From NCBI GenBank assembly GCA_964579265.1, contig CAZOFO010000001.1, forward strand, positions 46,115-110,114: a DNA stretch of 64,000 bases. Reading direction: 5' to 3'. Origin of the DNA: Candidatus Micrarchaeota archaeon. GTDB lineage: Archaea > B1Sed10-29. This document shows, piece by piece, positions 10,192 through 61,512 of this stretch. The notes under the pieces are model-generated. The model was not told the origin of the DNA, did no database searches, and saw nothing but the letters and a program-made list of their open reading frames with translations. How positions within the stretch are numbered: position 1 is the stretch's first letter; each line of letters starts with the position of its first letter. Position numbers and translations under genes: made by a program.

Positions 10192-10194
10192 CTA

Positions 10195-10680
10195 TTACCA
10201 TGTTTGAATTTCTATTTCAGATTCTCTATATTCTTCTCCTGTCCATATATAGCTTCTTGTTCTTTTTGTTCTTGCTCCTGCTGTTTCATTTGCTTGGCAT
10301 TTATATGTTTTATCGCTTTCTATTTCGCTTACTTTGATCTTTAAAGAAGTTTCTACAGGTATTTTTTCCTCTAGTTCACTGCATCTTGTCTGATTTATCT
10401 CTTCTAATTTTTGAAGGTCCAGGATATGTGGATTGTTCCCTTCTTCGTAGTACGTTAGTCCTAGTTCCTGAACTTGGTTTATGCTGCTCCAGTTTCTAGG
10501 TTTTCCAGGGTTTTGGGTAATTGTTTGAGATATTAATATATTTTCAATCTGGTCTGGATCTCTTTGAGTTCTTAAAGTATCTAAAGGATATGCTGAAGCT
10601 CGCATGGCTATTATATATCCTGTTATAAATATCATTACAGCTATTATGAAGTCATAGGTCATTATTCCTTTTTCATTCAT
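10195..10680 (-). CDS. pilin-like protein with class III signal peptide (161 aa)
   Basis: N-terminus MNEKG|IMTYDFIIAVMIFITGYIIA. In operon. Confidence 0.45.
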   Translation of the reverse strand: MNEKGIMTYDFIIAVMIFITGYIIAMRASAYPLDTLRTQRDPDQIENILISQTITQNPGKPRNWSSINQVQELGLTYYEEGNNPHILDLQKLEEINQTRCSELEEKIPVETSLKIKVSEIESDKTYKCQANETAGARTKRTRSYIWTGEEYRESEIEIQTW

Positions 10681-10716
10681 CTCTTGGTTTCCCCTCCTTC
10701 CTTAGATTTATTTTAT

Positions 10717-11958: not shown

Positions 11959-11967
11959 TTATTTTTA

Positions 11968-12864: not shown

Positions 12865-12865
12865 T

Positions 12866-14842
12866 TTATGTTTTCACTTCCTCTTCTTTTATTTTTTCCA
12901 TTAGTTTTTCAGGATTGCTCTGGTACTGTGCTATTACTTCTCCTACTTCTTCAAATCCTGTTATGTTGTTTTCCTGCATCCATTTTAGTATTGTAGCTCT
13001 TCTCTGCAGTTCTCTCCACATTTCTTCTTTTGATATTCCTTTTTCATCGGATATTTCTTTTAGTATATGGCTTTCTTCTGATACGAATTCGAAGTAATCG
13101 TCCGAGGGTACGTAAGTGAATAGTTCATTGGTTATTGGTTGTCCTGTGTCCATATCTACATCTACTACTTCTACCAGTGATTTTACTCTTCTTGCATCTA
13201 TTTTTTCTACTTTGGAAAATCCCAGTATTATTATCACATCGAGGTGTTGAAGCAGTCCAGGAGAGAGATTTATTGGTTCTGTTTTTAATCTGTTTATTAC
13301 TGCTTGTATGGAGTCTGCGTGCATTGTTGCGAATCCAGGGTGTCCTGTTGCCATTCCCTGGAACAGGTTGTATGCTTCTTCTCCTCTAACTTCTCCCACT
13401 ATTATATGGTCTGGTCTTTCTCTTAATCCTGCTTTTACTAGATCGAACATTGTTACTTCTCCTTGTTCTGTTTTTCCTTTTTTTCCTGTTTTTGTAGCTA
13501 TTTTGTTTATCCAGTGTTCGTGGGGAAGTCTAATTTCAGGTGTGTCTTCTATTGACACTATTTTACGGTCTCTTGGTATGAACATGCTTAGAGAGTTCAG
13601 CATTGATGTTTTTCCTGTTGCTGTTCCTCCGGATACTAGTACTGAGTTTTGATATTCTACTGCTACCCATATGTATGCTCCTATTATTGCTGGGACTGTT
13701 CCAAAGTTCAGTTGATCTATTATTGTGAGTGGTTCTTCTGTGAATTTTCTTATTGTAAATGTTGATCCTTTCATCGCAATTTCTTTTCCTGCTGAGTAGG
13801 TTGCTTGTAATCTGGATCCGTCTGGTAGTGCTCCTTGTAGTAATGGTTCCGATACTGATATGTGTTTCCCTGTTCTTTGAGCTAGTTTTGTAACGAATCT
13901 ATCTAGTTCATTACTGTCTTCATAGGTTACGTTTGTTTTTAGAGATCCATATCTTTTGTGGTATATGTATATTGGTATATTTTCTCCGTCGCATGAGATA
14001 TCTTCGATTGATTTATCGTGCATTAAAGGTTCTATTTTTTCTAGTCCTAAGAAGTCTCTGTATATGTAGTATAGAAGTTTATTGTATTGGTCTTGCGTTA
14101 TCTCTATTTCGTAATTCTTTATTATCCCGCTGAGTTTATCTTTTAGATATTCTCTCATTTCTTGTCTTTCTGTTGCTTCCATTAGGTTTACATCTAGTAG
14201 TTCTTTTAGAAGTCCTTTTATCTTCTCTAGTTTTTCTTTTTCTTCCTCAGTTAGTGGTGGTTCCAGTACGTCGTAGAGCAGTCTTTCTTCATCTTCGTTC
14301 CAGTGCAGTCTTGCGTATGCCCAGGGTTCTATTAATTCGTATCTTTCATCTACTTCTTCTAGTTTTGGTGGTTGCCAGGAAGGATTTATTTTTTCTGCTT
14401 TTACTTTTTCAGGTATGCTGAATAGTTCAGGTCCTCCTCTAACTTCTTGTATTGGTTTTACTCCTTCTTTTAGTCTTATTTTTCTAGTGACTTGTGGGAA
14501 TTCCCATACTTCTGGTTTTTGGAATTTTTTCTGTTCTTTTTCTTCTTCCTTTTTCTCTTTTGCAAAACCTCCTTTTATTTCTTTCTCTTTTAGTTTTTCT
14601 AATCTGGGTGATGTTCTCGTTTCAGGAGGTTCTCTTTTCTTAGTGGCTAGTTCTTCTTCTTTTGTTTCTTCTTTCATTCTTTCTCTTCTTTGGAATATGT
14701 TTTCTCTTTTCGGAGGTATTTCGGTTGGTTTTCTTTCTTTTCTTTCTTTGTTTTTTTCTTGTATTTTTTCAGCTGCTTTCTCGTGTTCTTCTTTTTCTTC
14801 TAATTTTTCTCCTGTTTTCTTTATTATGTCTTTAAGAGCCAC
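12866..14842 (-). CDS. type II/IV secretion-system ATPase (FlaI/TadA/VirB11 family) with ~170-aa K/E-rich N-terminal extension
   Basis: Walker A VSGGTATGKTSMLNSL, Asp box IVSIEDTPEI, Walker B/His box GEVRGEEAYNLFQGMATGHPGFATMHADS. The N-terminal third is low-complexity K/E/R repeats. Confidence 0.8.
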   Translation of the reverse strand: MALKDIIKKTGEKLEEKEEHEKAAEKIQEKNKERKERKPTEIPPKRENIFQRRERMKEETKEEELATKKREPPETRTSPRLEKLKEKEIKGGFAKEKKEEEKEQKKFQKPEVWEFPQVTRKIRLKEGVKPIQEVRGGPELFSIPEKVKAEKINPSWQPPKLEEVDERYELIEPWAYARLHWNEDEERLLYDVLEPPLTEEEKEKLEKIKGLLKELLDVNLMEATERQEMREYLKDKLSGIIKNYEIEITQDQYNKLLYYIYRDFLGLEKIEPLMHDKSIEDISCDGENIPIYIYHKRYGSLKTNVTYEDSNELDRFVTKLAQRTGKHISVSEPLLQGALPDGSRLQATYSAGKEIAMKGSTFTIRKFTEEPLTIIDQLNFGTVPAIIGAYIWVAVEYQNSVLVSGGTATGKTSMLNSLSMFIPRDRKIVSIEDTPEIRLPHEHWINKIATKTGKKGKTEQGEVTMFDLVKAGLRERPDHIIVGEVRGEEAYNLFQGMATGHPGFATMHADSIQAVINRLKTEPINLSPGLLQHLDVIIILGFSKVEKIDARRVKSLVEVVDVDMDTGQPITNELFTYVPSDDYFEFVSEESHILKEISDEKGISKEEMWRELQRRATILKWMQENNITGFEEVGEVIAQYQSNPEKLMEKIKEEEVKT

Positions 14843-15275
14843 AGTGATTCACCATCTCTATCTTTGTTTCTTCTGATCCTTCCTTGAATATTAAACATCT
14901 TTCACCTGGTGATACTTCTCCTGAAATATTTTTTTCACTGCATTTTATGTTTGTAGTTTCTATATTGTTTTCTGCGGGCATGTGAGTTTCCGTGTTTATC
15001 GTTATTTTTCCTTCTTGGCATTCTAATGAGGATGCGTATCCTGTTTCTATTCTTGGGAGGTTTAATTTTATTTCAGTGGTTTGATTAGTGTTTTCCATGG
15101 TTGATACTCCGTAATGTAGTTTTTTATTTATGTATTGATTTATTTCTTCTACTTTCTCTCTTATTCTTTGGTCTCTGGCATTTTGGGTTTGAGAGTGAAC
15201 TGTGAAGTAGGCTGTTATTAGTATTGTTCCCATTATCGCGTATCTTAGTGTTATTGTGGCTCCTAACGGTGGCAT
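14832..15275 (-). CDS. small protein with hydrophobic N-terminus (possible pilus accessory/minor pilin)
   Basis: 147-aa ORF overlapping the ATPase start by 11 nt. N-terminal hydrophobic segment; Cys pairs in the C-terminal half. Confidence 0.35.
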   Translation of the reverse strand: MPPLGATITLRYAIMGTILITAYFTVHSQTQNARDQRIREKVEEINQYINKKLHYGVSTMENTNQTTEIKLNLPRIETGYASSLECQEGKITINTETHMPAENNIETTNIKCSEKNISGEVSPGERCLIFKEGSEETKIEMVNHCGS

Positions 15276-15409
15276 CTTTATCCTTTTTTTGATTTTTTAT
15301 TTTCTTTTTCAAGTGTTTATTAATAATTAAATCAATAAATAAGTTTCCTTTAAATATTTCCTGTGTTTTTTCTTGAGTGTCTTGGAAATTTCTCTAGTTA
15401 TTATTTTCT

Positions 15410-17209
15410 CTAGCAGAAGTCAACGGATATTACTGGTTCGCCTTCTTCAGTTATTTCTTTCTTTTCGAGTACTACGGTCACTCTAGGACCGCTTCTTCCT
15501 TTTATACAGTTTCCTTCCCAGGTTAGGTTTGCATTTGGGTAACATAGTGTTACTTGTGCGGTTCCTGGAGCTCCTGCTGCTCCTGTGTATACTCGGGAAT
15601 GTTTTCCTATCTTTCTGTTTAGTAGTTCTTCTCTTTCGTTTCGTATGTATGTGGTTTCTTCTGTACATGTTTCCAGTATTTGTTCGACTTCATCTGGATT
15701 TTCAACTTCTAGTGTCATTGATTTTAGTACTGGTGTATTCCCTTGTTCTTCTGAGTCTAGCTTTATATCTAGTTGATATTGTTCGTGTTCTCTTTCCCAT
15801 GTCAGGTTGTATTCTTCTTCTCCATCGAGTTCCTGTGTATTGTTTTCTTCTCTTTCAGTTCCTGGTGATCCTGTGATATTTACTATTATATCTTCATCGT
15901 TTAATTCGTAATCTAGATCTACAAGGTTTGGTTGGGAACTTGCCATTGTTCTTGAATCCAGTTCAAGGTGTCCTGGGCTTTGTATCCCTGTATCTACTTC
16001 TAATTTCACTTCATCTATTTCTGGATAGTCTCCATTTACTAGTTTTGTTTCGAATTCCCATTCATATCCTTCGACTCTGTTTCCTTCTTCATCCACGAAT
16101 TCTGATCCGGATATAGTTTCTCCGGGACTCGTGGCGTTCACCCATACTGATTCCCACCACTCGTCATTTTCATCCTCTCTCCCTCTTACTCTATACTGTA
16201 TCTCTGTTTCCTCTGGAAGTTCTCCTTCCCACTCCAGTAACCCTATTCTAGGTTCTATGTCTAGATCAGTTTCGAATACTTCTGAATTGTAAGTTCCGCT
16301 ATCCGAGATATTCATGAATGTGTGGTTCATCCAATCTATTTCTACTCTGGCTTCGTGTCCTTCTTCCCTTTTTTCAGAATAATATTGGAAAATTATTTCT
16401 ACTTCTTCTCTTTCACTTACGTTTATTTGATCGGACCATGTTTCCCAATCCTCTTCTTCATCAGATTCATCTTCATGAATTTGTTTTCCATCTACAATAA
16501 CTCTTACTTCAGCATCTCTATAGAAAGGACCACCACTTCCTATTAATTTATATCTATATCCTAAAGTAATTTCTTCGAGGAATCTCACGCTTCTTGTTTC
16601 ATTGTAAAAAGTTTCCCATTCATCTGGTTCTCCTTCAGAAGGAGGTATTGAATCATTATGATGGACTGCTTCTTCAGAGAGGAGAGTTAATGTTTCGTTC
16701 TCAACTTCTGTGTAGTTGAATGTTCCGTTTTTCCATTCTTCTTCGCTTTCCACTATGAATTCGTCAAATTCTCTTTCCAGGGAGACTTCTCCGTCTCTTA
16801 TTGAGATATTCTGTTTTTCAGTATAGTTTTCCCAGTCTCCTTGGGTTTCCCAGGTTAACCTTGGTTTCCCTATCTCTTCCGGTGGAGAAATATGACCTAC
16901 AGTTGCTACGTCCTGCCGGAAAGAAAGTACTATCTTATTATTTTCTTCATCCAGTCTGATGTTCCCTTCAGGTAGATGCAGGGGAAATGTATTTCTAGCT
17001 CCTACTTCACTATTCAATATCCTTCTAAGTTCATAATCAAAACTTTCCATTTGATTAACGAGATTAATGTTTTTTGGACCGTCACCTAGTCTCTCTACAT
17101 GAGGGTAGGCCCAGAAATATGCTGCGGAAGTAGTTACGACTACGATCGCTATTAACATCACGTAAGATATTACAGGGGTTATTCCCTTTTTCATTTGCAA
17201 TTTAGACAC
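15410..17209 (-). CDS. large pilin-like / adhesin protein with archaeal class III signal peptide (599 aa)
   Basis: N-terminus MKKG|ITPVISYVMLIAIVVVTTSAAYF matches the archaeal pilin/archaellin leader (KG|I.PVI..V.LIAI). It is followed by a large acidic domain with many N-x-S/T sequons (NYT, NGT, NET, NIS, NHT, NAT, NLT). Confidence 0.6.
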   Translation of the reverse strand: MSKLQMKKGITPVISYVMLIAIVVVTTSAAYFWAYPHVERLGDGPKNINLVNQMESFDYELRRILNSEVGARNTFPLHLPEGNIRLDEENNKIVLSFRQDVATVGHISPPEEIGKPRLTWETQGDWENYTEKQNISIRDGEVSLEREFDEFIVESEEEWKNGTFNYTEVENETLTLLSEEAVHHNDSIPPSEGEPDEWETFYNETRSVRFLEEITLGYRYKLIGSGGPFYRDAEVRVIVDGKQIHEDESDEEEDWETWSDQINVSEREEVEIIFQYYSEKREEGHEARVEIDWMNHTFMNISDSGTYNSEVFETDLDIEPRIGLLEWEGELPEETEIQYRVRGREDENDEWWESVWVNATSPGETISGSEFVDEEGNRVEGYEWEFETKLVNGDYPEIDEVKLEVDTGIQSPGHLELDSRTMASSQPNLVDLDYELNDEDIIVNITGSPGTEREENNTQELDGEEEYNLTWEREHEQYQLDIKLDSEEQGNTPVLKSMTLEVENPDEVEQILETCTEETTYIRNEREELLNRKIGKHSRVYTGAAGAPGTAQVTLCYPNANLTWEGNCIKGRSGPRVTVVLEKKEITEEGEPVISVDFC

Positions 17210-19176: not shown

Positions 19177-20499
19177 GTGTCCAACATGAATTTGAGTTCC
19201 GGAAAAATGTTTGCCATAGCAATCTCTTTAGTGCTGGCAGTATCGATGATCTCAGCTACAGCAGTACTAGCGCAAGGCCCACCATCAAATAGAGAAAATG
19301 ATGAAGAAGTACCAGGCCCGGGTAATGGAGAAGAAAATGAAACCAATGGAGAAGGAATGCCAGAGATAGGTCCTCCAGAAGATATTGAAAACGTAGGGAG
19401 AGGCAAAGGAATAGGAGAAAGAGTAAGAGAAATAGTAGGAGAAAAAGTAGAAGAAATACATGAAGCGATAAAAGGAGAAAACGTATCTGGAGGAGAAATT
19501 GCGGGCATAGCTCAAGAAATAGGAGTAGAAGTAGAAGACGTTGTAAGAGTAGAAGTAAGAAACATAAAAAATGAAACAAGAAACAGAATCGACCAGGAAG
19601 AAGATCAAGGAGAAAGAATGAGAATGCAGGTACAGCAAGCTAGAGCAGGTAGATACGACTACGCATACGATAGATTTGCTACAGAAGCAAGAGAAAAAAT
19701 AAATGAATTAGAACAAAGAGGAAAAGAAACCGAAGAACTAGGAGAAATACTAAATGAAATATCAGTTGCCTACATGGAAGCACACAGAGCTGAAGACCCT
19801 GAAGAAAGAGCTCAAGAAATGAAAGAAAAAGCACAACAATTCAGAAATAAATTTGAAGAATCTGCAGGAGATGAAGCAGAAGAAATAAGAAACAAATCAA
19901 GAGAAAGAGCTCAAGAAGCAGAAGAACATATGGAAGCAGTGAGAAAAGAAGCATGGGGAAACGCTAGAAATGCAGCTCTTAATGTATTCCAAAACAGGAT
20001 AGAAGCAGCAGAAAACAAAATAGAAGCATACCAACAAGCAGGATTTAATACAGAAGAAATGGAAAGCTCTCTAGAAGATCTAAGAAATATGGAGACTGAA
20101 TTAGAACAAGCATACGAAGGAGGAGACAGAGAAGAACTTCGAGAAGTAAAAGAATCCATAAGAGAAGAATGGAAAAGCATAATGAGAGCACAACCGGAAG
20201 AAAGAGCACAAGAATATGAGGAAACAATAGAAAAACTGAACCGAACACTCAGAGATAGCGAAGGAATAATCGAAGCCGCTCAAGAAAGAGGAATAGATGT
20301 AGCTGAAGCAGTAGCATCACAGGAAGGAATAGAAAACGGTATAGAAAGAGCTAAAGAAGCTATGGAAGAAGGAAACTATGAAGAAGCCAAACAAGAAATA
20401 GAAAACCTAAGAGAAGATTTCAAGGAATACAGGGAAAAAGCAGCAGGGATTGCACAAGAACTTAGAGGAGAAATGCAAGAAGGAGTCCCAGGAGGTTGA
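19177..20499 (+). CDS. secreted E/R/K-rich alpha-helical repeat (coiled-coil) protein
   Basis: Signal peptide (MNLSSGKMFAIAISLVLAVSMISATAVLAQG). The rest is highly charged with a recurring PEERAQE / RERAQE motif (x3); ends in GG. Confidence 0.5.
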   Translation: MSNMNLSSGKMFAIAISLVLAVSMISATAVLAQGPPSNRENDEEVPGPGNGEENETNGEGMPEIGPPEDIENVGRGKGIGERVREIVGEKVEEIHEAIKGENVSGGEIAGIAQEIGVEVEDVVRVEVRNIKNETRNRIDQEEDQGERMRMQVQQARAGRYDYAYDRFATEAREKINELEQRGKETEELGEILNEISVAYMEAHRAEDPEERAQEMKEKAQQFRNKFEESAGDEAEEIRNKSRERAQEAEEHMEAVRKEAWGNARNAALNVFQNRIEAAENKIEAYQQAGFNTEEMESSLEDLRNMETELEQAYEGGDREELREVKESIREEWKSIMRAQPEERAQEYEETIEKLNRTLRDSEGIIEAAQERGIDVAEAVASQEGIENGIERAKEAMEEGNYEEAKQEIENLREDFKEYREKAAGIAQELRGEMQEGVPGG

Positions 20500-20504
20500 T
20501 AAGG

Positions 20505-20759
20505 ATGGAAATCAGTAAAATAATCCCAATCCTGTTAATAGGAATACTATTAATAGGAATAGGCTGCATCGGTCCTTTTGCAGAGGAAGAACCTGAAGAA
20601 GAAGTTGAAGATCCGGAAGAAACGGAAGAAACCATTGATGAAGAAAGACTAAGTGAAATGGAAGAAAGTTTGGAATCAATGGAAAGAACTCTGGACTCCG
20701 TGTTGATGGAGCTCGAGGATCTGGATCTAGAAAACTTCACAGTGGAAGATGAACTGTAA
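20505..20759 (+). CDS. small acidic secreted/lipobox-like protein sharing the leader of the 37100 gene
   Basis: MEISKIIPILLIGILLIGIGCIGPFAEEEPEEE is near-identical to the N-terminus of the protein at 37100 (LVIGIGCIGPFAEDEPEDE). Start placed at ATG 20505; the track start at 20496 is TTG. Confidence 0.45.
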   Translation: MEISKIIPILLIGILLIGIGCIGPFAEEEPEEEVEDPEETEETIDEERLSEMEESLESMERTLDSVLMELEDLDLENFTVEDEL

Positions 20760-20786: not shown

Positions 20787-21878
20787 TTATTTAAAATTCT
20801 TAAAAAAGTATTTTATACCCATTGGCCAGAATCTTGGTCTTTTCAGAATCTCTTTTTTGAGTTTTCCAGGGTGGTCCATGTCTCCATGTTCTTCTATCAA
20901 TCTATCGATGTTATATCTTTTTATTTTCTTTATCAGTTTTTCTTTGTCCGTCCTATTGAGGAATTTCCTGATTTTCAAATGAGTCTTCAAATCTTTGTTT
21001 ATCTCACGCTGTTTCGATGTGTAAAGTCCAGGTTCTCCTTTTTTGATCGCTTTAGCTAGATTTTCTGCGGATTTACATCCCATTACAACTCCTCCTCCTG
21101 TAGTTGCTTTTACTTGACCTGCTGCGTCTCCTACTAAAGCCCATTTATTACCAATTATTTCTTTATCTGGATTAAATATTGGTATTGGTGCTGATCCTGT
21201 TCTTTTTATTTCTGATTCGTTTATTTTTATGTTTTCTTTTTTTATAAATTGTTCTAGAGCTTTTTCTAGGTTTCTATTTCTTGTTCCTATCCCTATCTTT
21301 GCTTTGTTTTCACTTAGAGGTATTCTCCAAGCGAAGAAATCTGGAGTGTATTCTCCCATGTATATTTCCGTGTAATCAGGGTTTATCTCAGTTTCTGTGA
21401 TCACTTGGTAGGTGTAATAGAATTCGTTGAGTTTGCTTTTCTCTCTGGCTACTGAGGAGATGGCTCCGTCTGCTCCTACTAGAAATTCCTCTTTATCTTT
21501 TCTTTTTGCTCTTTCTCTTGACTTCCACTTTCTGCCTTTTTTTATTTTCACGCCTTCTTTTTTTGCTTCTTCTCTGAGTTTCTTTTTGAGTTTCTTCATA
21601 TCTAGGACATGTGCTTGGGTTTCTTCTCTTTCCACTGTGAGTTCTTCATCATCTGCTTTTACTTTGCATCCTTTCACGCTGTTCAGGATCGCTTCTTGGT
21701 ACGGTAGATCCAAGCTGTTTAGACCTGTTTTGGAGATGAGGCCTCCGCAGGTTTTCCTTTGTAGTTCTTCATTCTTTTCCCATGACTCTGTTTCCACTTT
21801 GTCTATTTCACCTAGCTTTTTCCCTAGGTAGCTACCTACTATTCCTCCTCCTATTATTTTCACTTGCATTTTTTCCAA
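20787..21878 (-). CDS. geranylgeranyl reductase-family FAD-dependent oxidoreductase (archaeal lipid saturation) with K-rich insertion
   Basis: N-terminal FAD motif IIGGGIVGSYLG, TCGG, C-terminal GDAAGQVKATTGGG. A ~60-aa K/R/E-rich insertion (KKLKKKLREEAKKEGVKIKKGRKWKSRERAKRKDKEE). Confidence 0.75.
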   Translation of the reverse strand: MEKMQVKIIGGGIVGSYLGKKLGEIDKVETESWEKNEELQRKTCGGLISKTGLNSLDLPYQEAILNSVKGCKVKADDEELTVEREETQAHVLDMKKLKKKLREEAKKEGVKIKKGRKWKSRERAKRKDKEEFLVGADGAISSVAREKSKLNEFYYTYQVITETEINPDYTEIYMGEYTPDFFAWRIPLSENKAKIGIGTRNRNLEKALEQFIKKENIKINESEIKRTGSAPIPIFNPDKEIIGNKWALVGDAAGQVKATTGGGVVMGCKSAENLAKAIKKGEPGLYTSKQREINKDLKTHLKIRKFLNRTDKEKLIKKIKRYNIDRLIEEHGDMDHPGKLKKEILKRPRFWPMGIKYFFKNFK

Positions 21879-29483: not shown

Positions 29484-30770
29484 CTAGAAGAAGTAAGGAA
29501 GTACATTTATTATTAGCATGATAGTGACTATTACCGTTAATATTAACGATACAATTTTACCTGTTTTCTCTGAATCTATCCCTGCTTTTTCACCGTAGAA
29601 ACCAGCTATGTCTTCTGTTATCCTTGCTCCATCAAATATAGCGAAGGGAAGGTAGTTTATAACTCCTATTAAAAAGTTAAGAAGAACTATCCAGGTAAAT
29701 ATCTCTATTATATGGTTTTTTATGAAGTACCCTGGTCCTAATATTCCTTTTTCCTCTTGTCTAACTGATATGCCTAGACTGCCGTACATATCCGTTTTTC
29801 CATCTATCTCTCCTTTATCTGTTTCTAGAGTTATCTCTTGTCCTGGTTCTTCTAATTCGTATATCTCTTCAATATTGTATATCTTTGTACCTGTTTCTAG
29901 TTCTCCATGGAAAGGAGACTCTTCAGGAACTTCAGTTACTTCCCAGTACTCTATATTTTCTATTGCTTGTTGTTGTAGTCCTGGGGCTATGAAAAGTTGT
30001 AGTGGAAGTAAGAAGACTAATCCTATTGCAAATGCGGTGATGAAATTATTCATGGATCCTATTGAATAGACTCTTGTTCTTTTCTTTTTAGATGTTTCCT
30101 CTAATTCTTCTTCATCTGGTTCGGTAAATGCTCCTATTGGAATTATACCTAGTGTTAACAGTCCCACTGATTTTACTGCTATTCCTTCTACCCTTGCTAC
30201 TATGCCGTGTCCCCATTCGTGGACTATTAGTAGTATTACCAATCCTATTAGAGCTGATATTGGCACTTGTAGGGGCACACCTGGAACTTCTACTCCTGGT
30301 ATGACAGGAGCTACTCCTGGCATAGCTGCTTCTCCTGCTAAGAGGTCACTTATTATCATTCCAGATTGGTGTAAGAGAGCTAGAAATGCAAATCCTCCTA
30401 TACCTGTGATTACAGTTACTATCCCTGAGACACTTGTACCTATTGCTCCTGATGGGATTATTATGAATGCTATGGATGATATCAAAAATACTATGTAGTA
30501 TAGAATTATTTTTCCTGCTTTTTTCTTTTGTTGGTAGAGGAGAAATATGGCTGAGATTAATCCAAATGAAAAAACTATCCCTAGATCAGCTATTGTTCTC
30601 CATAGTTTTTCTTTTTCTGATAGTTTTTCAATGATCCCTAGGCTTTTTTTAGTCTTCCATAGGCACAGAGGTCCGTGTATCTCTGCATTTGTTTTCTTTT
30701 TAAATATTAGAGCTGGTACTGTGGCTAATATAGCTATTACTATTAGTATTATCGCTGTTGATGAAATCAT
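29484..30770 (-). CDS. site-2 protease (M50 family intramembrane zinc metalloprotease) with PDZ-like insert
   Basis: HExxH in TM (LLIVHEWGHGIVARVEGI) and the second zinc-ligand motif (NYLPFAIFDGARI); multi-TM. Confidence 0.75.
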   Translation of the reverse strand: MISSTAIILIVIAILATVPALIFKKKTNAEIHGPLCLWKTKKSLGIIEKLSEKEKLWRTIADLGIVFSFGLISAIFLLYQQKKKAGKIILYYIVFLISSIAFIIIPSGAIGTSVSGIVTVITGIGGFAFLALLHQSGMIISDLLAGEAAMPGVAPVIPGVEVPGVPLQVPISALIGLVILLIVHEWGHGIVARVEGIAVKSVGLLTLGIIPIGAFTEPDEEELEETSKKKRTRVYSIGSMNNFITAFAIGLVFLLPLQLFIAPGLQQQAIENIEYWEVTEVPEESPFHGELETGTKIYNIEEIYELEEPGQEITLETDKGEIDGKTDMYGSLGISVRQEEKGILGPGYFIKNHIIEIFTWIVLLNFLIGVINYLPFAIFDGARITEDIAGFYGEKAGIDSEKTGKIVSLILTVIVTIMLIINVLPYFF

Positions 30771-37090: not shown

Positions 37091-37099
37091 GATCAAAAG

Positions 37100-37942
37100 A
37101 TGAATCGGAAGATAATACCGCTGATATTAGTAGGATTACTCGTAATTGGGATCGGCTGCATCGGTCCTTTTGCTGAAGACGAACCTGAAGACGAAGAAAG
37201 AGAAAACGGAGTACCGGAAAACGAAACGGACGAAGAAGAAATTGATATAGATGTTCTCGGAGAAACAATAACGGAAAGTATGGAGAAAGAGGAAGAAATA
37301 GGCACCTATAAATCTGAAGGTGAAGTTTATTTAGAAGTTGCTGATGAGAACATTGGAGAAGAAGATATATCAGGGGAATTTACTAGAAAAAGATCTGGAG
37401 AAAAACAAAGACTAGATATGTTATTAAAAGCTCCTGAACCAGAATCAGAAGACTTAGAATTATCTATCTTAAGCTTACCCGAAGAAACCATCCTATGTAC
37501 AAGAGAAAGACTTGGTTGGGATTGCATGGATGCAGAGATGAATCCAGATACAATGTTTATAGACTTTATGATCCCTGAAAAAGAAATGTTAAATACCCTT
37601 GTAGAACAAAGAGCAGTTAATCCCACAAGAAAAGAACAAAAAACAATCATGGAAAGAAATTGTGACTTAGTAGGGATCGAAACTGAATTAAGAGATTTAA
37701 TAGGTATAATAGGAGAAATAGAAGAAGAACCAATAGAAGACGTGGATCTACAATTAGAAGTAGAACAATGCTACGATGAAGGAACAGGGGTAGCTCTAGA
37801 AACAATGATGGATTTATATATAGAAGAAGAACTTGGAAGTGTCTCGGTTTACCTTGAAAAAGAAACTGAAGAACTGGAAACAGGTCTAGAGATACCTGAA
37901 GAAGAATTCGAACCACCAGCGGAACCTGAAAATTCTTATTAA
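37100..37942 (+). CDS. secreted acidic Cys-containing protein, lipobox-like leader; paralogue of the 45237-46118 protein
   Basis: Leader MNRKIIPLILVGLLVIGIGCIGPFAEDEPEDE. C-terminal half aligns with the 45237 protein (GEKQRLD/GEKQRTD; EQCYDEGTGVALE / NQCYDKETGVPLL; IPEEEFEPPAEPE / IPEEIFELPADP). Confidence 0.5.
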   Translation: MNRKIIPLILVGLLVIGIGCIGPFAEDEPEDEERENGVPENETDEEEIDIDVLGETITESMEKEEEIGTYKSEGEVYLEVADENIGEEDISGEFTRKRSGEKQRLDMLLKAPEPESEDLELSILSLPEETILCTRERLGWDCMDAEMNPDTMFIDFMIPEKEMLNTLVEQRAVNPTRKEQKTIMERNCDLVGIETELRDLIGIIGEIEEEPIEDVDLQLEVEQCYDEGTGVALETMMDLYIEEELGSVSVYLEKETEELETGLEIPEEEFEPPAEPENSY

Positions 37943-38036
37943 CTTATTTATTTTTTTATAATTGTTTTCAAGGTAAAATGAACATCAAATTAAGAGTAAT
38001 TAGAGAGGATAGAGATTATTGTTTTTTAATATATCC

Positions 38037-39011
38037 TCATCTTCCTCCTAGAAGTTCATCGTATTTTCTTCTTGCTTCTTCCACAGATTCAACACCTTTA
38101 ACTATTGCTTTGCCGCTGCTATAGACACTTATCCTTACATTATCTTTATTTAGAATAGCTATTTTATCTCCGTATGTTTCTACTTCTGGATTTATTTCCT
38201 TTACTTTTTCAGGTTCCGTTATCCTAGGGTATATTTGAACGGAATCTTCACTACAAAGAGTTCTTGCTTCTTTTATCCTACTTAGTTCCTTGTATTTCCC
38301 GTTACAGGTGCTGCAGTCTTTTTTATTTTTAGTTTTTAGCTTATCAAAGCTCATTTTTTCTAAATTAATATTTAGTAGATTCTTCATTGGTCTTCCTTTA
38401 ACTATTTTCTCAATCTGCTTTACCTGTAGTGCTGAAATTATCTCAGCTATCCCTGGAGAAACTCCTAGTTGATCACATGTGTCTTCACTTGCTGGTTCTT
38501 CCCCTAGAACACATCTTAGACAAGGACCACCTTTTTCTACTGTCATTGTCATTCCTTTAGCTCCTCCTATCATTCCGATTATTAGAGGAACATTTTCTTT
38601 TACAGAGTAGTCATTTAGGAGAAGTCGAGTTCTAAGATTATCTGTGGAATCTATGATTACATCAGTATTCTTTACCTCTCTTTCAATATTATTTGAATTT
38701 AGATCTATTGGAGAACAGCTTATATCTTGGTTTTTATCTTTTGATATTTTCTCTATTTTTTCTTTCATTATTTCAGCTTTCAGGTTTCCTACTTCGTCTT
38801 TTGAATAGTTCTGATTATCTAAATTTCGAGACTCTAAGAAGTCTCTATCTATCAAGTTTAAATCACAACCTATCTTACCCAGTGTTTCAGAAGTTTTGGA
38901 TCCTAAGGTACCTAAACCTATTACTGTGCAATGTAGATCTCTTAGTTTATCGTAATCAGAATCTAGATAATTCTCTATCCTCGTTTTTTCACGGTTTTTT
39001 TCTCTCCGCAT
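38037..39011 (-). CDS. E1-like ThiF/MoeB/UbaA-family adenylyltransferase with ~80-aa C-terminal extension
   Basis: Nucleotide-binding motif VIGLGTLGSKTSETL and DRDFLESRNLDNQ; CxxC pairs (CLRC, CSTC). The C-terminal extension (beta-rich, ISVYSSGKAIVKG) ends in ...LLGGR. Confidence 0.65.
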   Translation of the reverse strand: MRREKNREKTRIENYLDSDYDKLRDLHCTVIGLGTLGSKTSETLGKIGCDLNLIDRDFLESRNLDNQNYSKDEVGNLKAEIMKEKIEKISKDKNQDISCSPIDLNSNNIEREVKNTDVIIDSTDNLRTRLLLNDYSVKENVPLIIGMIGGAKGMTMTVEKGGPCLRCVLGEEPASEDTCDQLGVSPGIAEIISALQVKQIEKIVKGRPMKNLLNINLEKMSFDKLKTKNKKDCSTCNGKYKELSRIKEARTLCSEDSVQIYPRITEPEKVKEINPEVETYGDKIAILNKDNVRISVYSSGKAIVKGVESVEEARRKYDELLGGR

Positions 39012-43385: not shown

Positions 43386-44393
43386 ATGAAAAAAGCCAAA
43401 TACTACTTAAAAAAAGATAATAAAGTAATATGTTATCTTTGCCCACACACATGTAGCTTAAAAGAAGAGGAAAGAGGCAAATGCAAAGTTAGAAAAAATG
43501 TAAAAGGAGAACTATTCTCTACTGTATATGGAAAACCAACATCCGAAGGTATAGACCCAATAGAAAAGAAACCATTATACCACTTTCTTCCCGGAGAAAA
43601 AGCATTTTCAATCGGAACTGCTGGATGTAACCAAAGCTGTCTATTCTGTTGTAACTGGCAGATAAGCCAATCAACCGAAAAAGAAATAAGGACAATGGAC
43701 TTGTCCCCGGAAGAAGCTGTCAAAAAAGCCGAATCACGGAACTCAAAGATAATAGCATACACCTACAATGAACCAACAGTCTTTATAGAATATATGCAGG
43801 AAACAGCTGAGATAGCAAGGGAAAAAAATCTTAAAAATATAGCAGTAACCTGTGGTTTAGTAAATGAAAAACCATTAAGAGACATTTCCAAATTCCTTGA
43901 TGCCGCCAATATAGATCTAAAATACTTCTCCGATCAGAAATATAAAGAAGTATCCGGAGGAAGATTAGAACCGGTCCTAAATACAATAAAAACTCTAAAA
44001 GAGGAAGGAGTATGGATAGAGATCACTAACCTAATCATACCAGGACTAAACGATGACGAAGAAACTATAAGAAAAATGTGTAAATGGATAATCGACAATA
44101 TTGGAGATGAAACACCGCTACACTTCTCAAGATTCTACCCTACCTACAAAATGAATAAAAAACCACCTACCCCTATAGAAACTGTTAAAAAAGCCGAAAA
44201 AATAGCCAAAGAAGAAGGAATAAAATATGTATACATAGGTAACATCCCAGAAGAAACTCCAAATACCAACTGCAGCAACTGTGACGCAACTATAATAGAA
44301 AGAAAAGGATTCAAATCAAAAATAAAAAAACTTGACCAGGAAAAAGGAGAATGCATAGAATGCGGAGAAAAAATCCCTGGAATATGGAAATGA
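43386..44393 (+). CDS. amrS: AmmeMemoRadiSam-system radical SAM enzyme (AmrS-like)
   Basis: N-terminal Cys-rich segment CYLCPHTCSLKEEERGKCKVRKN characteristic of AmrS, then radical-SAM CxxxCxxC (GCNQSCLFCCNW). Followed by a Memo-like gene. Confidence 0.65.
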   Translation: MKKAKYYLKKDNKVICYLCPHTCSLKEEERGKCKVRKNVKGELFSTVYGKPTSEGIDPIEKKPLYHFLPGEKAFSIGTAGCNQSCLFCCNWQISQSTEKEIRTMDLSPEEAVKKAESRNSKIIAYTYNEPTVFIEYMQETAEIAREKNLKNIAVTCGLVNEKPLRDISKFLDAANIDLKYFSDQKYKEVSGGRLEPVLNTIKTLKEEGVWIEITNLIIPGLNDDEETIRKMCKWIIDNIGDETPLHFSRFYPTYKMNKKPPTPIETVKKAEKIAKEEGIKYVYIGNIPEETPNTNCSNCDATIIERKGFKSKIKKLDQEKGECIECGEKIPGIWK

Positions 44394-44408
44394 AAAAATA
44401 AAGATAAC

Positions 44409-45245
44409 ATGGATAAGAATCAACAAAAAACCAGAAAACCAGTTGCAAGAGGATTCTACCCCTTAAATAAAGAAGAACTAGAGAAAAAAATAGATAAATT
44501 ACTCAAATCTGTACCTGAAAGAAATATAAATCCAAAAGGAATAATAGTGCCTCATGCAGGATACGAATACTCAGGTAAAACCGCTGCACACGCGTATAAA
44601 TCTCTTAAAGATAGAAAAATAGAAAATGCAGTCATCCTAGGATTTAACCACTCAGGAATAGGTGAAAAAGCAGCACTATCAACTCTACCCTGGGAAACTC
44701 CACTAGGGAAAACAGAAGTGAATAGAGAAATAAAGGAAAAAATCCTAGAAAATGAAGTTATAAAAGCGGACGAATCCGCTCATTCCCAGGAACACAGCAT
44801 AGAAGTACAACTACCATTCCTACAGTTCTTAAATCCTGAAATAGAGATAACTCCAATCTCTCTCTCGAACAAAATAAGTATAGAAGAAATTAAAAAAATA
44901 TCGGAAACTCTAAAAAAGATAGATTATAAGAAAAACATATTGATAGCTTCTTCGGATTTACTACACGTAGGTTACAGATTCAACTTAGTACCTGAAGAAG
45001 ACAATCTAGAATACCTCAATAAAAAAGATGAAGAATTTATAAACAGTATAAAAGATCTCAAAATCCAGGAGATAATTGAAAAAGGAAGAAAATCCACAGT
45101 ATGCGGATTCATACCTATAGCTGTAGTATTAGATACATTAAAAGATCAAATTAAAGAGATAAAAGTTCTAGAAAGATCTAATTCTTACGAGGTAACTGGG
45201 GATAAGTCTTCAGTCGTAGGTTACGCTAGCATAGCATTAACCTAA
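44409..45245 (+). CDS. amrB: MEMO1-family protein (AmmeMemoRadiSam system protein B, AmrB)
   Basis: GIIVPHAGYEYSG motif of Memo/AmrB; several His (HSQEHSIE) consistent with the extradiol-dioxygenase-like fold. Confidence 0.7.
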   Translation: MDKNQQKTRKPVARGFYPLNKEELEKKIDKLLKSVPERNINPKGIIVPHAGYEYSGKTAAHAYKSLKDRKIENAVILGFNHSGIGEKAALSTLPWETPLGKTEVNREIKEKILENEVIKADESAHSQEHSIEVQLPFLQFLNPEIEITPISLSNKISIEEIKKISETLKKIDYKKNILIASSDLLHVGYRFNLVPEEDNLEYLNKKDEEFINSIKDLKIQEIIEKGRKSTVCGFIPIAVVLDTLKDQIKEIKVLERSNSYEVTGDKSSVVGYASIALT

Positions 45246-46118
45246 GTCATTATAATGACCAATAGGATCTGCAGGTAGTTCAAAAATCTCTTCAGGTATA
45301 TCCGCTTCCATTTCCAATGATTCAATCTCCATCTCCATTAGGAATGAGTCTTCAGGAGATTCCATCTTCATTTCTTCCAGTAGAGGCACTCCTGTTTCCT
45401 TATCGTAACATTGATTCATCTCCATGGTTACTCCTCCCGTGCCCGGTATTTCACCCATATGTTCTTCTATCACTTCAGTATCAAGTTCCATCTCTACGTA
45501 GTTACATTCTCTTCCAGATACTCTCATTTTTTCAGCATGACGTTGCGTGAAATTGATTTCTTCTTCCTCTATCATTTCTTCCAGTTCTTCTTTATCTAGA
45601 GTCATACCTGTTTCTATATCTTCTCCTTCTTCACATATCCATCCATCTATCTCATCGTAGAAATCTTCCAGTCCTTTCATACAAGAAAATGTACCTTCTG
45701 GGAGAATGAAAGTAGATGTTGTTATTTCTCCTGCTGTACCGTGCTGTATTCCTTGATTAACTCCTCCGTAATCATCTAATTGGAAAGATATATCGGTTCT
45801 CTGTTTTTCCCCGTCACTTGATCTATAGGTCACAAATACTCCGTTCATCTCTTCTTCTTGACCCATCTCCTCCATAGTGATATCTATTTCTCCTTCTGCT
45901 ATGTATGAGGGAGCTTCCTCTCTTTTCTCTATGCTTTCTAGAACTGCGTCTTCAGGGCTTGTGCCTGTGGTTCTGTAAAAAATTATTAATGAAGTTATTA
46001 ATCCTATTACGAATACTGCTCCCACGAGAGCAATAAAGAATGTTTTGTTTTTCTCCATTATTTTCACCGTTAGATTTACCAGAGCTTTAAAGCATCTCTG
46101 TTGTTTTTTTAATCTCAA
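45237..46118 (-). CDS. membrane-anchored acidic Cys-containing protein, paralogue of the 37100-37942 protein
   Basis: N-terminal TM (FFIALVGAVFVIGLITSLIIF). Conserved blocks shared with the 37100 protein, including four aligned Cys. Confidence 0.5.
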   Translation of the reverse strand: MRLKKQQRCFKALVNLTVKIMEKNKTFFIALVGAVFVIGLITSLIIFYRTTGTSPEDAVLESIEKREEAPSYIAEGEIDITMEEMGQEEEMNGVFVTYRSSDGEKQRTDISFQLDDYGGVNQGIQHGTAGEITTSTFILPEGTFSCMKGLEDFYDEIDGWICEEGEDIETGMTLDKEELEEMIEEEEINFTQRHAEKMRVSGRECNYVEMELDTEVIEEHMGEIPGTGGVTMEMNQCYDKETGVPLLEEMKMESPEDSFLMEMEIESLEMEADIPEEIFELPADPIGHYNDLG

Positions 46119-46127
46119 GAGTTTATA

Positions 46128-46925
46128 TTACTTTTCATTTTCTAATCTTGATAACGATCTCAATATTACCCATGAAGCCAGGTAACTGGTTCTGTTATTG
46201 ATCTCCTTTGAAGAAACTTCGCATATATCCATTCCAATTACTTTGTTTTGAAATACTTCATCGAGAATTTCATCTACTTGGCGAGGGTTCTTTCCAAGAG
46301 GTTCCGGGTAGGCAACGTCTGGGGCGTAGGAGGGATCGAAGATATCTATGTCCACTGTGAGGTAAACTGGTTCTTCAATTTTTTCAGTTTCTTCAGGTTT
46401 TTCTCTTTCTGTGCACTGTCGAGTTCCAATTTGAACCAGGTTTATATCTGGTTTACTTTCTTTTATTCTCTTTGCCCAGGTGTTGTGAGTGTATTTATTA
46501 CTGTTTAGTTCTTCATCTAAATCTTTATGAGCGTCTAGTTGTACTATCGTTTTTGGTTTTATTGATTCTGCTATAGGTAGGGTTATTGTATGTTCTCCTC
46601 CCAGTAGAACTAAAAATGCTTCTTTATTTACTTCTTTTATCTCTTTTATTGTTTCTTTTATCCTTTTTCCTGTTTCTTTGAATTTACCAGGAACTATATC
46701 TATTTCTCCAGCATCATGTATCTTCATTTCTTTTAAAGGATTTTTATCCAGGTCTGGTTGATAGCTTGATCTGTATTTAAGTGCTTTTTTTATTGTTGTT
46801 GGCCCGTATCTTTGGTTTCCTTCTGAATAAGCTGTTGAGTCGAACGGTATGCCTAGAAAAACCACGTCGGCTTTTTCTAAAGGATAATCACTGGTGAATG
46901 ATTTCGAGGTGTAGAGCATTTTCAT
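46128..46925 (-). CDS. speB: ureohydrolase (agmatinase/arginase family)
   Basis: Mn-binding motifs GGEHTIT, LDAHKD, DIDIFDPSYAPDV..PEPLG, GMDICEV. Confidence 0.7.
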   Translation of the reverse strand: MKMLYTSKSFTSDYPLEKADVVFLGIPFDSTAYSEGNQRYGPTTIKKALKYRSSYQPDLDKNPLKEMKIHDAGEIDIVPGKFKETGKRIKETIKEIKEVNKEAFLVLLGGEHTITLPIAESIKPKTIVQLDAHKDLDEELNSNKYTHNTWAKRIKESKPDINLVQIGTRQCTEREKPEETEKIEEPVYLTVDIDIFDPSYAPDVAYPEPLGKNPRQVDEILDEVFQNKVIGMDICEVSSKEINNRTSYLASWVILRSLSRLENEK

Positions 46926-46931
46926 CGTTTT

Positions 46932-48020
46932 TTATTCTGTTTCACTCTTTTTTATCTTTTTACTTTGCACGGTTTTTTGAGCTAGTTTTTTTGTTTCGTA
47001 ATCTACTGCAAATAGACTGCCTATAAATATTGGTATCCAGTACTGTATTATCCTGTATATACTTACAGCTAGTACTGTTAATCCTAACGGAGCAATTGTA
47101 GATACTAACACTACTGAGGATATTTCAAAAGCTCCGATCTCCCCTGGCATGAATGAAAATAAACCTATTAATCTTGCGATAATAAAGAACAGTAATATTG
47201 AGGGTATGGGTGCGTCTATACCTACTCCTAGTACCGAAAATAGGAATATACCTGCTGTTAGTAGATGATGTAAAAACATGTATAGGCTTGATACTGTTAA
47301 TCTTTTCTTCTCTTTTAGGTAGGGGGTTACTAGTTTATCGAATGAATCAAATTCTTTCATTGCTCTATCTATTAGTTCTTCTTTGGACCATTCCTTGAAA
47401 AAACGGAGCTTTTTACCTATTTTTACTCCTAGCAAGGCGAAGTACTTGAATATTCCTCTTGCTTTTTCTGTATGGAGTATGAAATAAAATAGTAGTCCTA
47501 CTAGTGACAGGAAAAATGTTAGGAGGATAATTAGGAGAATGAAGATATAAGTATCTATCTGGATAGCTAGTATAGACCATATAAATGCTATTACGGTTAG
47601 GAAAAGGAATCCTATGGACCAGGTGAACATTTGTGCAGTGACTGAAGCCATGGATGAATCTAGATCTGTAACTCCTTTCTTATTTGCCATGTACCCCATT
47701 GTCAGTTCTCCTGTCGGTAACAGATGAGGTAAGATTCTTTCAGCAAGAAAACCTATCATGATGGAGCTGAATAAAGGCTTTATCGATATATCTTCATTGA
47801 AAAATCTTAGCAGGATTACCCAGCTTAGCAGGTGAGCTATTATGGATCCAAGGAGACAGATTAAAGCTATCGAGATAAGTAAGATATTTGATTCAAACAG
47901 TTTCGATATGTTCAATCCAACAAAATTCAGCACTATTACCAGAATTGATATCCATATGATAAAGGTGAGTATTACTTGTTTCAAATGGCTTTCCTGCTTT
48001 GAGAACATACTGATCAACAT
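46932..48020 (-). CDS. polytopic membrane protein, UPF0104 / MprF-flippase-like family (tentative)
   Basis: ~8 TM helices; 362 aa; family assignment by overall pattern only. Confidence 0.35.
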   Translation of the reverse strand: MLISMFSKQESHLKQVILTFIIWISILVIVLNFVGLNISKLFESNILLISIALICLLGSIIAHLLSWVILLRFFNEDISIKPLFSSIMIGFLAERILPHLLPTGELTMGYMANKKGVTDLDSSMASVTAQMFTWSIGFLFLTVIAFIWSILAIQIDTYIFILLIILLTFFLSLVGLLFYFILHTEKARGIFKYFALLGVKIGKKLRFFKEWSKEELIDRAMKEFDSFDKLVTPYLKEKKRLTVSSLYMFLHHLLTAGIFLFSVLGVGIDAPIPSILLFFIIARLIGLFSFMPGEIGAFEISSVVLVSTIAPLGLTVLAVSIYRIIQYWIPIFIGSLFAVDYETKKLAQKTVQSKKIKKSETE

Positions 48021-48104: not shown

Positions 48105-49007
48105 ATGAAACTTAAATTATTTTGGGCTATGATGATCACTTTCCTCATAATGGGAGGTTTTTTAGCAGCTGTATTTTGGATAGCTTTACAGATATTCGGT
48201 ATAACAGGATTACCAATGATTATTGGAATTGTAGGGTTTGTAGGAGTAATGATATTGCTACAGTGGGCAATATCCCCGGCTATGATAAAAAGAATGGCTA
48301 AATTAAAAGAATGTGAAGATCCTAAAATAAAGAAGATGGTTCACGATCTAGCAGAAGAAGCTGGAATACCAAAACCAAAAGTCTATATCGCGCCTAAGAA
48401 AACCCCAAATGCCTTTGCATTCGGAAGAACCAGAAAATCAAGTGCGGTGGCTCTTCATAAAGGTTTGATAGAAAAACTGGATAAAGAAGAATTGAAGGGA
48501 GTAATCGCGCATGAAGTTGGACACATAAAACATAGAGACACTTCAGTTATGACTCTGGCTAGCGCATTACCTATGATACTTTTCTACGTGGTTTTCTTTG
48601 GTTCTATGATGGCTGGAGGCAAAAGAGGTAGAGGCACCGGATTCTTAGGAGCCTGGATAGGAGGGATGATAGCTCAGTTTGTAGGTTCTCTTGTGGTTAT
48701 GTATCTATCTAGAGTAAGAGAATACTACGCGGACACTCGTTCGGCTTATCTTACAGGTAATCCAGAAGGTCTTGCCAGCGCTTTGGATAAGATAACTTCT
48801 TATGAGCCTGATAAAAAACCTGTTCCAGCTAAAGCAAGATCCGGAGGAAATAAACAAAATGAAAAGATGATGAAAAGTTTCTATATAGCGGAGAATGGTA
48901 GGAGAAAGGCTTCTGGTAAAAAAGCAAAAAGCTCTATTGCGGAGGTTTTCATGAGTCATCCTCTGCCCGAGAAGAGGATAAGAAGATTGAAGGAATTTAA
49001 AAATTAG
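48105..49007 (+). CDS. htpX: HtpX-like M48-family zinc metalloprotease
   Basis: Two N-terminal TM helices, HExxH (IAHEVGHIKHRD), additional TM pair. Confidence 0.75.
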   Translation: MKLKLFWAMMITFLIMGGFLAAVFWIALQIFGITGLPMIIGIVGFVGVMILLQWAISPAMIKRMAKLKECEDPKIKKMVHDLAEEAGIPKPKVYIAPKKTPNAFAFGRTRKSSAVALHKGLIEKLDKEELKGVIAHEVGHIKHRDTSVMTLASALPMILFYVVFFGSMMAGGKRGRGTGFLGAWIGGMIAQFVGSLVVMYLSRVREYYADTRSAYLTGNPEGLASALDKITSYEPDKKPVPAKARSGGNKQNEKMMKSFYIAENGRRKASGKKAKSSIAEVFMSHPLPEKRIRRLKEFKN

Positions 49008-60843: not shown

Positions 60844-61512
60844 TCAGCTTCTCTTTATAGACTGTATCATGTGTCCTAGTCCGCTCAGTATAAAGGCTCC
60901 TCCGACCCAGTACTGTATCAAGGCCGGGTACATTATGACCAATATCCCTGTGGACACGAGTATTAGGCCTATGAAGGCTGCGGTGATTTTCTTGGTCTTC
61001 GACATTTTATTTTCCACCTCATTTAACACATTTATCATCCCTAGTAGATTCCAGGGACCGTGATCAAGATTGTGTTTCTTCGCGAATTTCTTGATCTCTG
61101 AACTGACTTCTTTCCAGAAATCTGCGAAGAATATGAAGTTGAGCATTAACAGAGCTATTATCATAACTATTGTGTAAGTTATCCCTGCCCAGTAATCTGC
61201 GAAGTGAGTCAATAGTAGTCCTATTTCATCGAAGAATATTCCAAGACCTGCACCGTATAGTATTGCGGATATTCTTTCTAGTTTTCTGTTTTTGTGAACT
61301 ATTGAGATCCATCCTGCGATTATTATTAGTGCGAGGCCGTAGTAGAAGTGGTGTATCATGTATGTTTCGAATGGGAATAAGTCTCTACCCGTCCATCCTG
61401 GCACTAAAAAGAATACGTATAGTCTGGCGATTAGAAAGGAGATTAGAAAAGATATGAATATTAGAAAAGGCATCTCCTTATTTTTTTTCTTTAGAAAGTT
61501 TTTTATAGGCAT
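60844..61512 (-). CDS. polytopic membrane protein (222 aa), unknown function
   Basis: Six hydrophobic segments; no motif. Confidence 0.35.
   Translation of the reverse strand: MPIKNFLKKKNKEMPFLIFISFLISFLIARLYVFFLVPGWTGRDLFPFETYMIHHFYYGLALIIIAGWISIVHKNRKLERISAILYGAGLGIFFDEIGLLLTHFADYWAGITYTIVMIIALLMLNFIFFADFWKEVSSEIKKFAKKHNLDHGPWNLLGMINVLNEVENKMSKTKKITAAFIGLILVSTGILVIMYPALIQYWVGGAFILSGLGHMIQSIKRS

Follow-up and report, generated by a model that had tools for sequence, protein, structure and literature searches.

The window analysed here is a stretch of 64 kb from contig CAZOFO010000001.1 of a Candidatus Micrarchaeota archaeon, a small organism of soda-lake sediments that is adapted to salt; the stretch has a GC content of 35% and a generally acidic proteome. 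It contains a gene for a surface protein, the 37100 gene (genes are named here after a coordinate in the window), whose N-terminal leader recurs almost unchanged on unrelated proteins and whose folded domain recurs on a differently anchored paralogue. An initial annotation had proposed three genes carrying parts of one module, the 37100, the 45237 and the 20505 gene, and all three are real (Table 1). The probable start of the 37100 gene is the ATG at 37100 (MNRKIIPL...) because orthologous leaders elsewhere begin identically, and the 870-nt open reading frame (ORF) opening with the ATG at 37073 probably extends too far upstream. The minus-strand gene, annotated as 45237-46118, exists, but the end at 46118 corresponds to an upstream TTG codon and the likely start is the ATG at 46058 (MEKNK..., 273 amino acids), which is the form given in public gene calls; its anchor is, as had been described, a plain transmembrane (TM) helix without Cys. 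The small protein is also present, although the length of 87 amino acids given for it applies only if translation starts at TTG 20496, while a start at ATG 20505 gives 84 amino acids.

Table 1. Features of the leader-bearing genes and of the paralogue in the window (aa, amino acids).
Feature	Position	Strand	Remark
LolA-like lipobox-type surface protein gene, 280 aa	37100-37942	+	
Predicted signal peptide, n-region MNRK and h-region IIPLILVGLLVIGIG, residues 1-19	37100-37156	+	Module also on unrelated proteins
Putative lipidated Cys20 (+1), then conserved extension I-G-P-F-A (+2 to +6)	37157-37174	+	
Polyacidic linker, E26 to about D53	37175-37258	+	Predicted flexible tether
LolA-like domain, four conserved Cys C133, C142, C188, C224	37259-37939	+	
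Paralogue, 273 aa, LolA-like four-Cys domain on N-terminal Cys-free TM anchor	45237-46058	-	
Small leader-bearing protein, 84 aa (87 aa from TTG 20496)	20505-20759	+	Acidic linker and tail
Upstream secreted protein, 440 aa, acidic, coiled-coil-like, ordinary Cys-free signal peptide	19177-20499	+	

The leaders of the 37100 and 20505 proteins are near-identical, as had been noticed initially: they match at 22 of 30 positions, with mismatches only within I/L/V or D/E, both contain the run IGIGCIGPFAE unchanged, and the two genes have a stretch of 20 identical nucleotides in common (GGCTGCATCGGTCCTTTTGC). BLASTP between the two leaders gave no alignment owing to its composition correction, and a direct comparison of motif and DNA was used instead. 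According to six-frame translations of the 64 kb, the motif is confined to these two genes within the window. The leader has the build of a lipoprotein signal, with a basic n-region (MNRK) and an h-region (IIPLILVGLLVIGIG) that is free of D, E, K and R, for which the lipobox rule allows 7-22 residues, and the Cys lies at residue 20-23 in all leader copies. A strict lipobox requires L, V or I at -3, A, S, T, V or I at -2, G, A or S at -1 and Cys at +1, and Gly -1, Ile -2 and Cys +1 of the leader fit this rule. At -3 the leader departs from the strict rule, and its positions +2 to +6 are fixed, but it does match the broader PROSITE PS51257-type pattern. Two other classes of signal were considered and rejected, a Tat signal on account of n-regions (MNRK, MNKK, MIKK or MKGK) that all lack RR, and a class III, type IV pilin-like signal on account of the window's two leaders, which have no K/R-G ahead of the h-region; MKGK opens one related leader.

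The initial annotation had reasoned that a leader restricted to two genes, together with a domain belonging to a well-known Pfam family, would point to an ordinary duplication. Neither is the case, since the leader is present on further proteins in related metagenome and genome loci and the four-Cys domain has no such family. A homology search with the 37100 protein retrieved P0002, P0003 and P0004, which match the leader only and are otherwise unrelated, P0003 and P0004 carrying InlB-B-repeat (Flg_new_2) domains. One contig of 37.5 kb (L001) contains three leader-bearing genes within 5 kb. A degenerate DNA scan for IGIGCIGPF matched one genome and five metagenome loci, of which one (L007, GC 58%) is a chance match; the DNA pattern is exact, and the scan therefore overlooks variant leaders and makes the leader look more invariant than it is. 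The genome is a metagenome-assembled genome from soda-lake sediment labelled Candidatus Iainarchaeum archaeon T1Sed10_39R1, belonging to the DPANN, and at least two of the four genuine metagenome matches come from soda-lake sediment samples as well. The scan added leader-bearing thioredoxin-like proteins and orphans of 132 and 149 amino acids, and a generic-lipobox scan added a variant, LLLTIG↓CFGPFAGEDG (L004:1079; the arrow stands ahead of the Cys), with a very different h-region on a prealbumin-like protein. Within the loci studied, acidic ORFs that pass the lipobox rule all have I-G-C-(I/F)-G. An acidic run follows the leader in nearly all copies, with a length and sequence that differ among the proteins. 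A profile search with the leader alignment returned one true match (P0008) and missed known carriers, so it provides no census, and a scan of viral contigs for GCIGPFA, which serves as a chance baseline, gave 13 matches, none of them in a signal-peptide context. The leader thus appears to be a lineage-wide tag, known from a few soda-lake and other metagenome samples. Among the cargos are thioredoxin-like proteins with a CPxC motif (WGEGCPVC, WGDGCPVC, WGDGCPAC), encoded at L001:14317-14742, L005:1464-1904 and L006:3494-3646, and the leader-bearing product of L001:14762-16147 has a thioredoxin-like CPxC domain at its C-terminus. These proteins suggest a lipid-anchored extracytoplasmic thiol-disulfide oxidoreductase, which could oxidise the cargos with Cys pairs.

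The near invariance of the leader raises the question whether it is maintained by selection on the protein or by copying of the DNA. For eight leader copies, Nei-Gojobori counts gave proportions of synonymous (pS) and non-synonymous (pN) differences of 0.73 and 0.26 in the h-region and of 0.74 and 0.00 in the IGIGCIGPFA core, the zero being partly built in because four of the eight copies were retrieved by a DNA pattern that demands the motif. The copies found independently of it (the window pair, L001, P0004, P0008) still agree in the core. Codons of the core vary between copies (GGC/GGA/GGT, TGC/TGT, ATC/ATA, CCT/CCA/CCG, TTT/TTC, GCT/GCA/GCG), even among the three copies of one genome (L001), and the leader is under selection at the amino acid level. 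An N-terminal cassette consisting of 5' end, leader and linker, copied by duplication or gene conversion, e.g., for surface diversification, and serving ordinary secretion only, possibly with cleavage by signal peptidase I near G-I-G↓C or C-I-G↓, would account for further observations. The two window copies have six consecutive identical codons, including the rare GGC (5% usage), ATC (10%) and GGT (14%), and the genes of P0002 and P0003 have 141 identical nucleotides in common, covering 11 nt upstream, the leader and the linker (L034:1-141 and L001:9990-10130), a length equal to the k-mer length of the assembler (k=141). In inverted orientation the same 141-nt repeat bounds contig k141_115105, and the leader therefore breaks assemblies. 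In addition, the cargo beside a ThiF-like gene varies between relatives: in the window (37100-39011) the neighbour is the leader-bearing LolA-like gene, in L010 (7753-9759) it is a TM-anchored Flg_new_2 protein, and surface-protein genes have therefore been replaced at that spot. However, most copies, including the three in L001, differ at most synonymous sites and encode the same amino acids, whereas conversion alone would homogenise DNA and not protein. Moreover, L004:1079 retains G-C-F-G-P-F-A behind a quite different h-region, and processing by signal peptidase I leaves the invariant Cys unexplained. We regard copying as the sole explanation as quite unlikely. Since leader DNA was copied between genes and its codons then varied while the amino acids were kept, the cassette spread and was subsequently held constant at the protein level. 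Recombination between cargo genes may take place at the leader.

The second part of the module is the four-Cys domain. The 37100 and 45237 proteins are paralogues with 31% identity over approximately 245 aligned amino acids (E 3e-14), somewhat more than the 200 first estimated, and the four co-aligned Cys described initially, C133, C142, C188 and C224 in the numbering of the 37100 protein, are invariant in the four closest members, i.e., the two window proteins and two metagenomic homologues. When 1.84 billion representatives were searched exhaustively with a profile, only 69 clusters were returned at E<=1e-3; all of them retain C133, C142 and C224, and C188 is conserved to at least 90%. Neither window protein matches a Pfam or NCBIfam family, and the 84-amino-acid protein and the leader yield none in these databases either. 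Pfam DUF6612 (PF20316) is touched by 11 of the 69 members at E<=1, with 1.6e-8 as the best value. This uncharacterised lipoprotein family is alike in length and lipoprotein character, but the window proteins and most four-Cys members do not reach any threshold, and the four-Cys family is a divergent branch relative to DUF6612 that is defined by its four Cys.

The family also bears on how the domain is held at the membrane. Of the 69 members, 8 are fragments, 18 are anchored by an N-terminal TM helix and 43 have a lipobox of the PROSITE type, in which position -1 is invariably Gly (e.g., LVSG↓CT, LLTG↓CLGG, FLSG↓CVGG). Cys20 of the window protein sits in the lipobox Cys column of the family alignment, which holds a Cys in 45 of the 69. 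At the 45237 locus the orthologues of L010 and L012 are TM-anchored, whereas that of L031 (P0013) bears a lipobox of canonical form (LLTG↓CLGGEG). Because orthologues at one locus carry either anchor, the Cys-bearing leader and the TM helix are interchangeable as anchors of the same domain, which is the strongest comparative argument for IGIG↓C as a lipobox. The same use of plain TM anchors by the paralogue and several orthologues could also be read as support for an uncleaved type-II signal anchor, whose exoplasmic end, G-x-G-C-x-G-P-F, would dock on a common membrane partner or oligomer and whose Cys would not be lipidated but would serve in packing or in a disulfide between molecules. The hydrophobic run I5-A25 of about 21 residues could span the membrane, and the h-region is conserved along its full length (P7, G12, L14), something that an ordinary lipobox signal would not call for. 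On the other hand, the Cys lies exactly at the canonical lipobox site of family members with short h-regions, the TM-anchored relatives have no conserved anchor sequence, and the h-region exchanges I, L, V and T freely (pN 0.26) with the sharp conservation centred on the Cys. We consider a signal anchor unlikely.

For the domain itself, an AlphaFold2 model of residues 54-280, computed from the alignment of four sequences, reached a pLDDT of 77.6 and a pTM of 0.76 and comprises an N-terminal helix, a long antiparallel sheet and a short helical insert. The model has the attributes of a LolA-like fold, namely an antiparallel beta-barrel that does not close, a helix at the N-terminus and a helical insert, and Foldseek is in agreement, with LolA, LolA3, LprG, VioE and EPDR1 as matches. 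The structure prediction that the initial annotation had suggested for the four-Cys domain thus returned a LolA-like half-barrel. According to the strand boundaries of the model, C133 and C142 (model residues 80 and 89) face each other within one hairpin, and C188 and C224 (135 and 171) are in register on adjacent strands, so that two cross-strand disulfides may be predicted. The domain is LolA-like by fold and lies outside every curated sequence family. It differs from the LolA/LolB/LppX/LprG/RseB superfamily in that sequence identity is only 5-10%, and classical LolA is without the two Cys pairs conserved in the window family. Furthermore, the host of this LolA-type protein is an archaeon without outer membrane or Lol pathway, and the ligand and the role must therefore differ from those of LolA. 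Most likely, the 37100 cargo and the 45237 paralogue would bind a hydrophobic ligand, i.e., a lipid or lipid-modified molecule, at the cell surface.

Taken together, the shared N-terminus is best explained, with a probability of about 0.68, as a lipoprotein signal peptide of the Sec type in a haloalkaliphilic archaeon of DPANN type, with a LolA-like half-barrel among its cargos. The sequences establish the paralogy, the fold prediction, the spread of the leader over many cargos, its selection at the amino acid level and the alignment of its Cys with the canonical lipobox Cys, and we infer lipidation, cleavage, a role of IGPFA, ligand binding and disulfides as follows. The short basic n-region, the h-region of 15 residues and the lipobox ending in I-G-C would direct export by the Sec route, because a twin arginine is absent. 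If Haloferax lipoproteins are a guide, an AliA-type enzyme would attach an archaeol to the Cys through a thioether, and an archaeal lipoprotein signal peptidase would cut off the leader before the Cys. The extension C-(I/F)-G-P-F-A would act as a recognition or interfacial-anchoring element, in which I and F could dip into the membrane surface and G-P break the helix, while the polyacidic tether would keep the cargo off the membrane. Two cross-strand disulfides would stabilise the LolA-like half-barrels of the 37100 cargo and the 45237 paralogue, and the thioredoxin-like lipoproteins with the same leader might supply the extracytoplasmic disulfide chemistry. In Haloferax the anchor is a thioether-linked archaeol and the signal peptidase is yet unidentified; for DPANN a high prevalence of lipobox proteins is predicted, and AliA (arCOG02177) occurs there (PMC12462473).

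Several points weigh against this reading. Comparison of the membrane proteins encoded in the window with Pfam and NCBIfam, which used no AliA-specific model and covered, with 64 kb, only a fraction of the genome, gave no AliA candidate. At -3 the leader has Gly (Thr in L004:1079) and Ile only at -4, contrary to the strict rule, and the stretch I5-A25 is long enough for an uncleaved anchor. The four copies retrieved by motif inflate the apparent invariance in the selection test, and the two copies that were not selected by motif do vary after the Cys (CIGNDDD; CFGPFAG), which indicates where change is tolerated. Finally, the LolA-like assignment depends on one model from only four sequences, the family profile matched no sequence of the PDB, and the window proteins match no Pfam family, the curated LolA-type families included.

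Compared with known lipobox signals of the Sec/signal peptidase II type (PROSITE PS51257; Haloferax AliA/AliB substrates, PMC12462473), the leader is alike in its basic n-region, uncharged h-region, Gly at -1, aliphatic residue at -2, invariant Cys near residue 20, missing twin arginine and attachment to typical surface proteins. It differs in its residue at -3 (Gly or Thr, not L/V/I), in its near invariance over unrelated cargos and in the conserved +2 to +6 (I/F-G-P-F-A) with the polyacidic run behind. The lineage is thus distinguished twice, by a 25-residue leader that is near invariant over unrelated cargos and by a lipobox extended to C-(I/F)-G-P-F-A. Bacterial YSIRK/GS signal peptides, the Bacteroidota export signal and the conserved prolipoprotein leaders of variable lipoprotein families in Mycoplasma likewise combine a conserved leader or post-Cys stretch with unrelated or variable cargos, and the Bacteroidota signal has acidic residues shortly after the lipidated Cys as the window leader does, but all of them differ from it in domain of life and sequence. 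An archaeosortase-like signal, with which the leader had been compared initially, is at the wrong terminus: PGF-CTERM tags are alike in being lineage-restricted on archaeal surface proteins, in having a small P/G/F motif beside a TM helix and in having basic residues on the cytoplasmic side, but they are C-terminal and their transpeptidase keeps the N-terminal part of the protein, whereas the window tag is N-terminal, has the order G-P-F and follows a Cys. The C-termini of the two leader-bearing window proteins (..PAEPENSY, ..FTVEDEL) are hydrophilic, and the two mechanisms are not compatible.

The extension behind the Cys invites a stronger interpretation. It appears doubtful, at long odds, that the 25-residue leader together with IGPFA and the acidic run forms a dedicated archaeal lipoprotein sorting or recognition signal read by lineage-specific machinery, for which a lipoprotein signal peptidase or a delivery system to the host-contact surface of the DPANN cell would be candidates; if it did, it would be the first post-lipobox sorting code described in Archaea. 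That the post-Cys IGPFA and the acidic run are a true sorting signal to a destination such as a host-contact site or outer layer, similar to the bacterial +2 to +5 signals for Lol avoidance or Bacteroidota surface export, is very improbable. Positions +2 to +6 are better conserved than the h-region and are followed nearly everywhere by acidic residues, and because family members outside the lineage have only G-C-(T/V/I/L) without PFA, the extension is lineage-specific. However, a second membrane is not known in such archaea, and PFA may be dispensable: the thioredoxin-like copy of L001 ends its leader with CIGNDDDEE and lacks PFA, which its orthologues in L005 and L006 have. The overall interpretation given initially is supported in part; nothing observed so far speaks for a new mechanism, and the data would rather fit a new form of the lipobox signal and a new archaeal LolA-like branch.

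The first enzymes of archaeal lipoprotein biogenesis, AliA and AliB, became known only in 2025. A leader with a fixed C-I-G-P-F-A junction is an unusually clean substrate motif for reporter fusions and for the search for a co-evolving processing enzyme, and it could improve lipoprotein prediction in DPANN genomes; if it is merely a well-conserved lipobox signal, it provides useful annotation and not new biology. The cargo adds an archaeal four-Cys branch to the LolA-like superfamily. With a lipid-binding fold tethered to the membrane at the surface of a host-dependent archaeon, it would be a reasonable, though speculative, candidate for lipid handling.

Some further observations concern the surroundings of these genes. 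The 440-amino-acid gene and the 84-amino-acid gene abut (19177-20759), and the pair is conserved (L014: 427 and 80 amino acids). The small protein itself has an orthologue (P0008), its Cys codon is at 20565-20567, and its C-terminal tail, LDSVLMELEDLxLENFTVxDEL, is conserved and helix-like; it might be a small lipoprotein anchoring the 440-amino-acid protein. A 92-amino-acid antisense ORF (20462-20740, minus strand) was rejected as a gene, as its Ser-rich translation only mirrors the Glu-rich coding strand, and the Ser-rich antisense ORF 37093-37305 (minus strand) is likewise an artefact of GAA-rich sequence. A geranylgeranyl-reductase-like gene (20787-21878, minus strand) adjoins the 84-amino-acid gene and a gene with an MprF-type flippase domain (46932-48020, minus strand) lies two genes from the 45237 paralogue; both neighbours are related to lipids, but in both cases the proximity may be coincidental. 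The neighbourhood of the paralogue (43386-46925), with arginase-family, LolA-like, Memo and radical SAM genes, recurs in L009-L013 and L031, and no functional link of the other three to the LolA-like gene was found.

Membrane proteases encoded in the window are a homologue of presenilin and signal peptide peptidase (61570-62496, minus strand; NCBIfam PSH, E 8e-33), an M50 site-2 protease (29484-30770, minus strand) and HtpX (48105-49007, plus strand). It may be speculated that the P and G of the leader, by breaking the helix, would make the released signal peptide a suitable target for cleavage within the membrane. Between a YdjM-like hydrolase gene and the presenilin homologue lies a gene (60844-61512, minus strand) for a multi-TM protein of 222 amino acids, which belongs to no Pfam family; its only NCBIfam match, GdpS, is weak and below threshold (21 bits, cut-off 400). 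Finally, a pilin-like cluster at 9020-17209 (minus strand) encodes proteins with class III-type N-termini, unlike the leader studied here, and includes two T2SSF/TadC-like membrane proteins (10717-12864), which points to an archaeal type IV pilus-like locus.
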